A DNA stretch of 64,000 nucleotides from sequence record NZ_CP019224.1; one strand, given 5' to 3'. Shown one piece after another: positions 8,845 through 13,761 of this stretch. A program made the translations under genes and the position numbers. The stretch comes from a plasmid. A model generated the notes under the pieces. That model saw only the letters and a list, made by a program, of their open reading frames with translations. It made no database searches and was not told where the DNA came from. Numbering within the stretch: position 1 is the stretch's first letter; every line of letters begins with the position of its first letter.

Positions 8845-9089
8845 GTTAGGGCGTTGGCCAGTAGCCGACAACGCCGTTGAATTCGAGGTCAGTTTGGGTG
8901 AAGTCGTTGCCGAGTGGCGTAGGCCATGGTGTCGCCGTAGTTGACGGCTGCGGGGTGGCGTCCCTTCCCGTAGTGGAGGTAGGCGCTGTGGGCGTCGATC
9001 GCGTGTTCGAGGGTGAAGGGTTCGGGCGCGTGCGCGCGCGCGTCTTCCCGGCGGTATGACCGTTGCCGTTGAGTGTGTTTGAGTTGCAC
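8845..9089 (-). pseudogene. vapC: vapC (PIN-domain toxin) 3' remnant, truncated by IS607-family insertion and carrying an internal deletion
   Basis: DNA 8845-9060 is homologous to the 3' half of intact vapC at 13075-13320 with about 40 bp missing. Translated fragment [35 protein letters not shown] matches the intact copy, then frameshifts. Confidence 0.65.
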
Positions 9090-10742
9090 TCATGCGGCGT
9101 CCCCTTGCGGGGTTGGGGTTTTGGCCTCTCCGCGTCCGGCCCCGCGTGGGCGGGGTCTTACGGATGCTCCGCCGGCACCGGTTGATCCGGTGTCCGCGCC
9201 ATGGCCTGTACCAACCGATTCGGTTGGCCCGGGTACCGATGGGGCCGTGGTCCCGACTGGACCACAACTGGCGTAATCCGGCCAGTCACGGAGATTCAAA
9301 GCAGCATTTCTATCGCGGTCGACCATTTCACCTGTCTGCGGGCAGATGAGGTGCTTGTCGATCCGGCCCTTACCGACCAGGCGGCATGGGGTGCCGTTGG
9401 GGTGGGTGCAGCGGTGGTGGAGCTGGCTTGATGGGAACCAGCGATCCGCCACGATCAGGGTGCTGCCGTGCCGAGTGGTCTTGTAGGCCAGCATCGGCGC
9501 GACCAATCCCATTGCGGCATCAGAAACAGACCGGCGAAACGCCCGCCGGCCCATACTGCGTTTCATCGCGGCCACATCGAGATCTTCGATCACGACCTGG
9601 CCGTAGGTGCCCGCCAACTGCGTGGTGAGTTGGTGGGCTGCTTCCCGCCGCAGATGCACGCACCGACGATCCAATCGGGTCAGCTTGGCTTTCGCTGCCC
9701 GATGACCGTGCGATCCGGGGATACGGCGGGAAAGTTCACGACCAGCCCTGCGGCGGGCGGCAAGTGTCGCCTTGAGCGGGGCCGGATTCTTATACTCGAC
9801 AACGGTTTCGACGCCGGTGGCGGGGTCGATCGTGGCGACGGTGGCCAGCGTGCGCACCCCCAGATCCACCCCGGCGCGCACCGTGGGCTGAGTCGGCGTT
9901 CTTCCCGCGCTCGGGGTGCGCAGCGCATAGCCGACCGACACGAACAACCGGCCCCACCGCTGGGACAGGGTCATGTTCAGGATGCGGGCGCGCCCCGATG
10001 CGAGATGACGTTGCACGCGGCGGGTGTTCTCCTTGGACCGCAGCGCGCTGATGACCGGGACCGTGATGCTATGGCGGTCATCCTCTACCCGCATGGTGCC
10101 GGTGGTGAACCGGACCCGGCCGGGATCGCGTCGCGCCGTGGCGAACCGCGGGAAACCCACCCGCCGACCCTGGCGTCTCCCGTTCTTGCTGGCGCTCCAG
10201 TTGCTCAGTGCCTGGGCCAGATCGGCCAACCCTGCCGAGTAACACTCCTTGCTGTTAGTGGCCCACCACGGCGCCACCTCGTGCTTAGCGAGATTCCACG
10301 CTTTGCGTAGCGCGCCGAGGTCCCAGCCCAACGACTCATGTTCCGGATCAGCCGATTTCGCGTCGAGGTCGGCCTTCACCCGACCCAGACCCCAGTTGAA
10401 CGCCTTGCGGCGAGCACCGAAATGCGACCGCACCAACGCCGCCCGCTCGGGCTCCGCTGGCCATTCCACCTCGAACTTCGCCGCGGTCACCAGCCAACCA
10501 GAGGCCACTTCCGCACCCAGCGAACCGTTGACCGCATAACCGGCGGCGTCCCCGTCGTAGAGCTTGAACAAGACAGACACCGATTCCACCACCGCACGGT
10601 GCGACTCGAAATCCGCGCCCACATCGACATAACGTGACAATGTTTGGCTGCCATCGGGTTTCGGTTTCCCCGGCAACTGCACACCACCGGTCAGCCCGGC
10701 CACCTTCGCCGCCTGACCACAGGTGCGCATCCCGACGATCAT
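9090..10742 (-). CDS. tnpB: TnpB (IS605/IS607 OrfB, RuvC-like plus zinc finger)
   Basis: C-terminal CTHPNGTPC...CPQTGEMVDRDRNAALNLRDW matches the TnpB zinc-finger/RuvC-III region. ATGA overlap with the tnpA stop at 10742. C-terminal 60 aa are low-complexity and may be read-through. Confidence 0.75.
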   Translation of the reverse strand: MIVGMRTCGQAAKVAGLTGGVQLPGKPKPDGSQTLSRYVDVGADFESHRAVVESVSVLFKLYDGDAAGYAVNGSLGAEVASGWLVTAAKFEVEWPAEPERAALVRSHFGARRKAFNWGLGRVKADLDAKSADPEHESLGWDLGALRKAWNLAKHEVAPWWATNSKECYSAGLADLAQALSNWSASKNGRRQGRRVGFPRFATARRDPGRVRFTTGTMRVEDDRHSITVPVISALRSKENTRRVQRHLASGRARILNMTLSQRWGRLFVSVGYALRTPSAGRTPTQPTVRAGVDLGVRTLATVATIDPATGVETVVEYKNPAPLKATLAARRRAGRELSRRIPGSHGHRAAKAKLTRLDRRCVHLRREAAHQLTTQLAGTYGQVVIEDLDVAAMKRSMGRRAFRRSVSDAAMGLVAPMLAYKTTRHGSTLIVADRWFPSSQLHHRCTHPNGTPCRLVGKGRIDKHLICPQTGEMVDRDRNAALNLRDWPDYASCGPVGTTAPSVPGPTESVGTGHGADTGSTGAGGASVRPRPRGAGRGEAKTPTPQGDAA

Positions 10743-11323
10743 CACGCAGCCCCTGGCTCCCGCTTGGTGGCCGTCACCGCACGCATCGCCCGATTCCGCG
10801 CACCACGACGGCCGTAGAGCCGCGCACACATACTGGTCAGGACCTCGATCATGTCGCGCACCAGATCATCGGTGGTCTCACCCGGATCAGCGACCACGAT
10901 CCGGCGGCCCTGCGCCGACAACGCCGCTTCCAGGTGTTCCACCCCGAAACGCGCCAGCCGATCCCGATGCTCCACAACGATCACCCTCGCATCGGGGTCC
11001 GACAAGATGCGGCGCAGCTTGGGCCGCTTCCCATTCAGCCCGGAACCGACCTCGCACACCACCTGGCCCACCTCAAGATCACGCTCCGTGGCCCACGCGG
11101 TCACCCGCGCCACCTGACGGTCCAGATCCGAGCGCTGATCATGGCTGGACACCCGCGCATACACCACCACCGTCGCCGCCGCACCCGATACCGAGGCTGC
11201 CGCCTTGACCAGAATCAGCCGCCCAACCCGCTCCGCGGGCACCGGCAACGTCCCCTCCCGAAACCACCGATAAGCGGTATGCCGGTTCACACCAACCGAT
11301 TCCGCCCAATCCGCCAGATTCAC
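10742..11323 (-). CDS. tnpA: IS607-family TnpA serine recombinase (MerR-like HTH + resolvase catalytic domain)
   Basis: 193 aa; N-terminal HTH ...VGVNRHTAYRWFREG..., catalytic YARVSSHDQ...DLDRQ serine-recombinase motifs. Confidence 0.85.
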   Translation of the reverse strand: MNLADWAESVGVNRHTAYRWFREGTLPVPAERVGRLILVKAAASVSGAAATVVVYARVSSHDQRSDLDRQVARVTAWATERDLEVGQVVCEVGSGLNGKRPKLRRILSDPDARVIVVEHRDRLARFGVEHLEAALSAQGRRIVVADPGETTDDLVRDMIEVLTSMCARLYGRRGARNRAMRAVTATKREPGAA

Positions 11324-11394
11324 AACACCAATTAGAAGACACTAACGCACACTTAAATGCACTCACTGCGCAACAGCTCGCAACCCCGCCCACG

Positions 11395-12831: not shown

Positions 12832-12972
12832 CCCACGGGGCTGGGTGCGCCGGGTTGCAGGGCTCACCGATGCCATCGCTGGGGATGGACTTCGGGCGAG
12901 GTTTAGCGGCGGGTGCTGCGGCGGCAGCGGGTGTTCCGCCGGTGACATCGGCGCCGATGACGTCGTTGGCGA
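12832..12972. repeat. about 140-bp duplicated fragment of the internal Pro/Gly-rich region of the 5726-8050 gene (matches 6757-6897)
   Basis: Near-identical DNA (cccacggggctgggtgcgcc...ggcgccgatgacgtcgttggcg) found at both sites; sits next to the IS256-family element. Confidence 0.7.
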
Positions 12973-13078
12973 GATCCAAATAGAGACTCAACGAGTCTTG
13001 CTGTTACACAGGCGAACTGCCGAGGTTTCGACTCGCGAGCTGTACGAACACGCGGGGCAGATGAATTAGTTGGGACCG

Positions 13079-13501
13079 TTAGGGCGCTGGCCAGTAGCCG
13101 ATGACGCCGTTGAATTCGAGGTCGGTTTGGGTGAAGTCGTTGCCGATGGCGATGAGGGGTTCGTGTGCGAGTTTGGCGGTGGCGTAGGCCATGGTGTCGC
13201 CGTAGTTGAGGGCGGCGGGGTGGCGGCCTTTTCCGTAGTGGAGGTAGGCGCGGTGGGCGGCGATCGCGTGTTCGAGGGTGAAGGGCTGGAAGCCGAGGTT
13301 GATTTCGGATCGTAGGCGGTCGAAGACGGTGCGCGCGGTCGCGCCGTGTCGGTTGGTGAGAACGATGAGGCATTCGGCTGCGTTGGCCGTGGACATGACG
13401 GGGCTGGGATCGGCGGCGATGGCGGCCGCGATCTGTTCGGTGTAGGGGTCCTCGCCCTGGATGAGGGCGACGATCGCGGAAGAGTCGATGATCAGGATCA
13501 A
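13079..13501 (-). CDS. vapC: VapC PIN-domain toxin
   Basis: 140 aa; [13 protein letters not shown]... PIN N-terminus; 4-nt overlap with upstream vapB. Confidence 0.85.
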
Positions 13502-13761
13502 ACTCCCGTTGCTGTGTCGTATCCGAGGGCTTGTTCGCGTTCGGTTTTGGTGATTGGGGATCGGTCGTCCAGTAGTGGCCAGATCTCGGTTTTGAGGACG
13601 TCGAGCAGTTCTGCGGAGCGGTTTGCGGTGCGGGATTGGGTGACTTCGATCTGGGCTCGCAGGGCGTAGCGGATGGCGTCGATGCGGCTGGGGAGGTGGA
13701 GGCGCGCGGCGAGCTCGTCTGCGAAGCGGATGACCTCTTCGTCTTTCACGTTGAAAGCCAT
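13498..13761 (-). CDS. vapB: VapB antitoxin
   Basis: 87-aa C-terminal segment of track ORF 13498..14379 ([34 protein letters not shown]...); the rest of that ORF is Arg/Pro-rich reverse-strand artefact. Confidence 0.7.

Follow-up and report, generated by a model that had tools for sequence, protein, structure and literature searches.

The sequence considered here is a stretch of 64,000 nucleotides from a plasmid (record NZ_CP019224.1, hereafter the window), in which positions 8,845 to 13,761 carry a VapBC toxin–antitoxin pair, a truncated second copy of the toxin gene (vapC*) and two insertion sequences (ISs), one of the IS607 family, encoding the serine recombinase TnpA and the protein TnpB, and one related to IS256. 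The plasmid belongs to the mycobacterial conjugative plasmids of the pRAW/pMyong1 type: positions 12832–36000 are 97.4% identical to pMyong1 of Mycobacterium intracellulare subsp. yongonense, including the ESX (type VII secretion) locus, and a TrwC relaxase is encoded at 54582–60473. In related plasmids the gene order is geneA (a hypothetical protein of ~770 amino acids), geneB, vapC and vapB (both in reverse orientation), cell-wall hydrolases and the eccB/ESX locus, and the ancestral order geneA...vapC–vapB is seen in the plasmid of M. chimaera DSM 44623. This order is kept in pMyong1, from which vapC has gone entirely, leaving vapB as an orphan antitoxin gene (pMyong1 5926–6030), whereas the window and the M. 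chimaera plasmid have retained the pair. The window holds the region in two incomplete copies, marked here by an asterisk (left) and a prime (right), whose joint has the geometry of a head-to-tail duplication, geneA*-geneB*-vapC*' :: geneA'-geneB'-vapC-vapB (Table 1). The truncation of vapC* is the work of this separate, illegitimate joint, in which IS607 played no role.

Table 1. Features of the duplicated region, in window coordinates
Feature	Position	Strand	Description
geneA*	5726..8050	+	774 amino acids, Pro/Gly/Ala-rich centre; full-length divergent copy, 79–80% identical to pMyong1
geneB*	8002..8769	+	255 amino acids, hypothetical; downstream partner of geneA*
vapC* remnant	8846..9021	-	~C-terminal 71 codons; frameshifting 32-bp deletion after 8913
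Illegitimate joint, vapC* middle :: geneA' middle	9019..9023		GAAGGG|TTCGGGCG; 3–5 nt microhomology
geneA' fragment left of IS607	9022..9059	+	GGGTTCGGGCG and CTTCCCGGCGGTATGA are exact pMyong1 geneA matches
Predicted guide/target	9044..9059	-	TCATACCGCCGGGAAG, first 16 nt past right end; position rule from PMC10711439
Omega-RNA-like scaffold (putative)	9060..9250/9290	-	Overlaps tnpB 3' end and right end (...CTCAACGGCAACGG)
IS607-family element	9060..11383	-	2324 bp; right end finishes in GG; left end preceded by target GGGG
tnpB	9090..10742	-	550 amino acids; RuvC D/E/D; non-canonical zinc finger; 82-residue N-terminal extension
tnpA	10742..11323	-	IS607-type serine recombinase, 193 amino acids, N-terminal helix-turn-helix, YARVSS catalytic motif
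geneA' right of IS607	11384..11398	+	CCCCGCCCACGGGGC; holds left copy of IS256 direct repeat
IS256/IS2606-like element	11399..12831	+	~1433 bp, ends uncertain by 1–3 nt
geneA' fragment	12832..12971	+	93% to 6752–6892; 91.5% to pMyong1
Blunt joint, 1687-bp deletion relative to pMyong1	12971..12972		Rest of geneA' and most of geneB' lost
geneB' 3' end	12972..13070	+	93% identical to pMyong1
vapC, intact	13079..13501	-	PIN domain 57 bits; D6, E43, D102, D122 present
vapB, intact	13498..13761	-	PSK_trans_fac 38 bits; Rv0623-like antitoxin

The intact vapB–vapC pair had been recognised in an earlier note on this DNA, and matches to the PIN and PSK_trans_fac families bear this out. With the acidic residues of its PIN domain and an overlapping antitoxin gene upstream, the pair has the sequence features of a type II toxin–antitoxin system of the VapBC kind and is predicted to be one. 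It is like Rv0623/Rv0624 (VapBC30) in joining a PSK_trans_fac antitoxin to a PIN toxin with four acidic residues through a 4-bp gene overlap, and its position is conserved in pRAW-like plasmids; it is unlike that system in being plasmid-borne and in having a dead 3' remnant as its second copy. The remnant was also noticed earlier and is real, but it is shorter than the proposed 8845–9060: repeat finding and alignment pair 8821–8913 with 13054–13146 at 88% identity and 8914–9020 with 13179–13285 at 93%, and the homology to vapC stops at ~9021. The N-terminal 69 codons of vapC* are missing and vapB* is gone. Since the offset between the two aligned blocks changes by 32 bp, the remnant carries a deletion of that size, which shifts the frame as the earlier note said, although the size had been put at about 40 bp; it is bordered by TGGCG repeats, as replication slippage would give.

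Assignment of the element next to the remnant to the IS607 family holds, as both proteins pass the curated NCBIfam cut-offs: TnpA scores 213 bits against the transpos_IS607 equivalog (cut-off 110) and TnpB 637 bits against IS607_TnpB (cut-off 350). TnpA also matches Pfam Resolvase (77 bits), with an HTH_17 match under its cut-off, and its stop codon (10744–10742) overlaps the tnpB ATG at 10742. The element thus has a serine TnpA, an overlapping downstream tnpB and the end features of the family, and is a bona fide member with, judging from its sequence, an intact-looking TnpB. It shares with IS607 of Helicobacter pylori, IS1535 of M. tuberculosis and ISXfa1 the helix-turn-helix serine TnpA, the overlapping tnpB, the lack of terminal inverted repeats and target duplication, a right end in GG, insertion after a run of G and a conserved, putatively structured 3' end; its nearest relatives found are only 80–83% identical at the DNA level (M. 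avium pS2b, metagenome-assembled genomes of Mycobacterium, M. kyorinense and M. celatum).

TnpB further matches Pfam OrfB_IS605 and Cas12f1-like_TNB, and is related to the ISDra2 TnpB of PDB structures 8h1j/8exa with E = 3e-30. RuvC and zinc-finger motifs had been named as the signatures to look for in the open reading frame at 9090–10742. The RuvC triad is there, with GVDLG, VIEDL and VDRDRNAALN aligning with D191/E278/D361 of ISDra2 TnpB; the zinc-finger domain is matched at 42.5 bits, but its ligands are non-canonical, reading HHRC-x7-C-x12-CPQT and not CxxC...CxxC. This pattern is kept across a clade of mycobacterial TnpB proteins of 550 amino acids in the form HH(R/G)(C/H)-x7-C-x12-CPxT, with a six-residue insert that brings an extra Cys and with two Cys positions replaced; CxxC...CxxC is kept in the protein of another element, in plasmid pMA100, and in more distant relatives. 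The 82-residue N-terminal extension is conserved in the same clade and falls outside the NCBIfam model.

The limits of the IS607 element were mapped against ten relatives, whose right-end flanks diverge directly after ...CTCAACGGCAACGG (...CAACGG) and whose left-end flanks diverge before (A/G)GGG|TTG(C/T)GAGCTGTTG (TTG(C/T)GAG). From end to end (9060–11387) it aligns with M. avium pS2b and several Mycobacterium genomes and metagenome-assembled genomes at 80–83% identity, and terminal inverted repeats and a target duplication are absent. Its target, TGACCCCGCC, is GGGG|T on the element strand, the GGGG corresponding to CCCC at 11384–11387 on the plus strand. Elements of this family are known to insert at GG without target duplication, to have a G-rich transposon-associated motif (TAM) and to produce a right element-derived RNA reaching past the right end (PMC10711439, PMC13565253).

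What lies on either side of these limits decides the origin of the insertion. The window reads GGGTTCGGGCG[CGTGCGCGCGCGCGT]CTTCCCGGCGGTATGA-CC-[IS607]-CC-CCGCCCACGGGGC..., where GGGTTCGGGCG is an exact 11-mer of geneA and is set apart from CTTCCCGGCGGTATGA by a 13–15 nt insertion of alternating G and C (9029–9043), while geneA of pMyong1 reads GGGTTCGGGCGGCTTCCCGGCGGTATGACCCCTCCCACGGGGC, so that CTTCCCGGCGGTATGA-CC and CC-CCGCCCACGGGGC, now either side of IS607, adjoin there. Positions 3980–3999 of pMyong1 are an exact empty site, with GGGG and 16/16 nt of TCATACCGCCGGGAAG on the element strand, and CTTCCCGGCGGTATGACCCC is the contiguous target expected in pMyong1-like geneA alleles. When IS607, the IS256-like element and one copy of its direct repeat were removed in silico, the restored stretch of 186 nt aligned without gaps at both former insertion points with geneA of pMyong1 (91%) and with geneA* (92%). 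Because both flanks are contiguous geneA, IS607 simply inserted into a fragment of geneA' and left no scar. The earlier note held that the element had replaced half of a duplicated vapBC module, removing vapB and the 5' half of vapC; given the contiguous flanks, the empty site in pMyong1 and a vapC* joint that lies 38 bp away, IS607 deleted neither.

The same note had the remnant abutting the tnpB stop codon, whereas 9022–9059 is derived from geneA and 9060–9089 is the right end of IS607. The joint itself fuses ...GGTGAAGGG|CTGG of vapC and ...GGGGGGG|TTCGGGCGG of geneA into GGTGAAGGG|TTCGGGCG, with a microhomology of 3 nt, rising to 5 nt at most should vapC* have read GGTT as in M. chimaera. 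When a serine recombinase acts, the crossover point comes to lie at an IS end (PMC10711439, PMC13565253). This joint is 38 bp from the end of IS607 and has no IS end at it, which excludes both TnpA and a recombination of one IS copy with another as its origin. Similar boundaries are known from homology-facilitated illegitimate recombination and from the mosaic pRAW–pMyong1 plasmids, in which a divergent segment merges into the homologous backbone on one side and ends on the other at a joint with 3–5 nt of microhomology, as in the window.

The second IS was rightly referred to IS256, since the open reading frame at 11442–12797 scores 382 bits against transpos_IS256 (cut-off 150). Over its whole length the element is 85% identical in DNA to IS2606 of M. 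ulcerans, an IS256-family element with which it shares a Mutator-type DDE transposase, imperfect terminal repeats and a target duplication of 8–10 bp, and from which it differs as a distinct member that lies 2–4 bp from the left end of IS607. The repeat CCCACGGGGC is found on both sides (11389–11398 and 12832–12841), so this element too is a simple insertion into geneA', and it arrived after IS607. As the target duplication is intact, IS256 was rejected as a cause of the rearrangement. Further right, 6752–6892 and 12832–12971 form a repeat pair (93%), part of geneA being present twice, and the 3' ends of geneB* and geneB' share no similarity. In some sister assemblies the IS256 transposase gene is split, at a point corresponding to 12193/12194, by a 3.18-kb element coding for a tyrosine integrase, an HTH_26 protein and a protein of ~540 amino acids. 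The description of the segment as a rearrangement hotspot is apt, with two IS elements, a duplication joint and two deletions, to which the sisters add this nested integrase element and nonsense alleles of geneA*.

Our account of these observations has four steps. Recombination at 3–5 nt of microhomology would have fused the middle of vapC* to the middle of geneA', giving a head-to-tail partial duplication; the left copy may have come in when a homologous crossover on its left was combined with the illegitimate joint on its right, or else when a cointegrate was reduced. Either earlier or later than this fusion, IS607 would have transposed into geneA' at a point 38 bp from the joint in the manner usual for serine recombinases, a circular intermediate crossing over at GG with no target duplication. 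The IS256-like element then inserted 2–4 bp past the left end of IS607, duplicating 8–10 bp of target, and the redundant DNA would have decayed through the 1687-bp deletion in geneA'/geneB' and the 32-bp slippage deletion in vapC*'. Taken as a whole, this history of a duplication joint, a separate IS607 insertion and a later IS256 insertion with decay seems to us very probable. On this reading the locus is unexceptional, a mosaic plasmid in which ISs have inserted and DNA has decayed around a duplication joint, and it does not challenge current knowledge.

As to the source of the left copy, identity to pMyong1 is 92–96% in 1–3868, 79–80% in 4714–8020, 92% in 12832–15477 and 96–98% in 16043–50943. 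With a plasmid so mosaic and copies that differ by 7–20%, the left copy is most economically assigned to another lineage of plasmid or element. In PLSDB the part with geneB* found matches of only 72–82% and the part with vapC* of only 70–72%, and the vapC*::geneA'::IS607 junction had no PLSDB record; the closest homologues of geneB* (79–84% amino acid identity) adjoin a TrwC relaxase gene and not vapBC.

The 3' end of the IS607 element was examined as the possible source of a guide RNA for TnpB. As with ISDra2 and other IS605 elements, whose RuvC D-E-D residues align with those found here, the guide would be expected from the DNA past the right end; the partner of this TnpB is a serine recombinase and not a Y1 HUH enzyme, the expected TAM is G-rich (GGGG) and not TTGAT as for ISDra2, and the first flanking nucleotide is probably part of the scaffold, as in ISXfa1. 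The earlier note had pointed to ~9090–9260 for an omega-RNA. A scaffold-like region is indeed found there, at ~9060–9250/9290 on the minus strand, but the predicted guide lies below 9060, from 9059 down to ~9044, and would come from geneA and not from vapC. Conservation reaches 87–90% over the final ~230 nt of the element against ~80% elsewhere, though these code for a low-complexity protein tail, and RNAalifold predicts 52 pairs in them, kept in 98% of cells, with compensatory changes in three pairs only. The covariance-model search that had been suggested for this end recovered no Rfam family, while a custom model built from close relatives matches the tnpB 3' ends of two more distant ones (57 and 25 bits). 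By analogy with known elements an omega-RNA at the 3' end is likely, with modest support. From what is known of IS607 and IS605 elements, TnpB would use an omega-RNA made of the last 190–230 nt and ~16 nt of flanking geneA, and would cut IS-free geneA with an adjacent GGGG, as in pMyong1, leading to retention or homing of the element. Within the window, geneA* has a near-cognate site at 6731–6746 on the minus strand (13/16 matches, three mismatches) with GGGG next to it (CCCC 6747–6750).

Several observations weigh against parts of this interpretation. A donor plasmid with intact vapB*C* beside geneB* was not found, which leaves the inter-lineage origin to inference, and the 38 bp between joint and IS607 have to be put down either to coincidence or to insertion being harmless in this fragment. 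The TnpB protein is indexed, in exactly this form, in 184 blocks of public assemblies; in the 8 places listed of these 184 blocks, no second or transposed copy, excision circle or empty-site allele turned up that would point to present mobility of the element. For the omega-RNA, most predicted pairs are invariant, a scan of 8600–11500 against Rfam (E <= 5) gave chance-level matches only and no omega-RNA family, and the single-sequence fold (z = -3.3) is not distinctive next to an internal tnpB control (-2.8).

The chief alternative to an inter-lineage origin is that the region from the middle of geneA to the middle of vapC was duplicated in tandem in situ and the left copy diverged later by recombination with other plasmids. 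Such duplications are typically head to tail and marked by short microhomology, and the overlapping pieces are still 88–93% identical; what tells against it is the additional replacement it needs, as geneA* is only 79–80% identical to pMyong1 between neighbours at 92–98%, and the geneB 3' ends are dissimilar. We therefore regard it as unlikely, though it deserves to be kept in mind.

In the 8 places listed of the 184 blocks the junctions are also identical throughout, which makes the arrangement an old one, fixed in a plasmid lineage that has been sampled widely. Within the window the IS607 element is present in one copy, and other IS607-type copies in the M. avium plasmids pP4-4a and pP3-3a lie in unrelated contexts. 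The element of pMA100 mentioned above (NZ_KR997898, ~6408–8568) is a different IS607-family element in geneA, ~75% identical and with a TnpB of 485 amino acids; since a TnpA of its type also occurs in pP4-4a, the pMA100-type element is mobile. It sits 17 bp from the insertion point in the window and in the opposite orientation, so that both right ends face the same 16–17 bp, from opposite strands of which the two elements would draw their guides. A general CC/GG motif 16–17 nt past the right end was sought in eight relatives, and none was seen.

Much less probable than the in situ duplication is that the empty geneA site was once cut by TnpB with its omega-RNA and that repair of the cut left the GC-rich insertion of 13–15 nt and the nearby joint as scars. 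The insertion begins 16–19 nt from the right end, which matches the cleavage distance of 15–21 bp reported for ISDra2 TnpB (PMC8612924), it is absent from pMyong1, geneA* and pMA100, and it contains the joint-longest alternating-GC run of the window (10 nt, equalled only at 62219–62228). With the IS next to the scar, however, a cut, end-joining and then precise re-homing would all be needed; one indel in 38 bp is weak positional evidence, expected about once in five by chance, and slippage in a GC repeat is simpler. A shade more doubtful still is the broader proposal that such scars at the GC insertion and at the joint 12 nt further on, together with the facing right ends of the pMA100 pair, mean that TnpB cuts seed IS607 insertions and plasmid rearrangements, as the 17-bp facing arrangement and the distance of the GC insertion are probably coincidences.

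Two further scenarios we consider next to impossible: that IS607 entered vapC of a duplicated vapBC and that insertion, or adjacent deletion by TnpA, took vapB and the vapC 5' half, to which the remnant's distance of just 38 bp from the right end, with no vapC 5' or vapB between, lends some appeal, but in which the intervening 38 bp should not be geneA continuing on the other flank nor the joint be free of an IS end; and that two IS607 copies, in vapC* of one plasmid and geneA of another, recombined so that the IS itself is the duplication joint, which would suit a mosaic of two lineages and the frequency of IS-mediated cointegration but predicts vapC* directly at the right end, where 38 bp of geneA collinear with the left-end flank are found.

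With the separate duplication joint and the scarless IS607 insertion preferred, the chief value of the analysis is a corrected annotation: the vapC pseudogene owes its origin to the illegitimate joint of a duplication, not to the IS. Since pMyong1, a sister plasmid, carries the exact empty site of this naturally inserted IS607 element, the locus also yields a testable prediction for the clade of 550-residue mycobacterial TnpB proteins with an unusual zinc finger, namely a TAM of GGGG and the guide TCATACCGCCGGGAAG. IS-free sister plasmids such as pMyong1 would be targets of TnpB, and the element could be used to ask if IS607 TnpB drives homing or competition among related conjugative plasmids.

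Elsewhere in the region, scans of geneA* with Pfam and NCBIfam gave no match. Some sister plasmids, otherwise 99.98–100% identical, have geneA* called as two shorter open reading frames; in one of them the length is unchanged relative to the window, so point mutations (nonsense alleles) are responsible, and the broken alleles suggest that geneA* is dispensable. A tandem repeat of ~1.19 kb in 13863–17300 (14856–15155 against 16045–16344, 99%) gives the window three paralogues upstream of the ESX locus, against two in pMyong1, and identity to pMyong1 rises from 92% to 98% at ~16043. A third insertion sequence without a counterpart in pMyong1 occupies 38691–40267, with a minus-strand open reading frame (38755–40347, 530 amino acids) that has an rve/rve_3 integrase core. 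Conversely, tnpB-only elements of pMyong1 (37259–38590 and ~76416–77866) correspond to IS-free sites in the window (47750–47753 and ~400–632).

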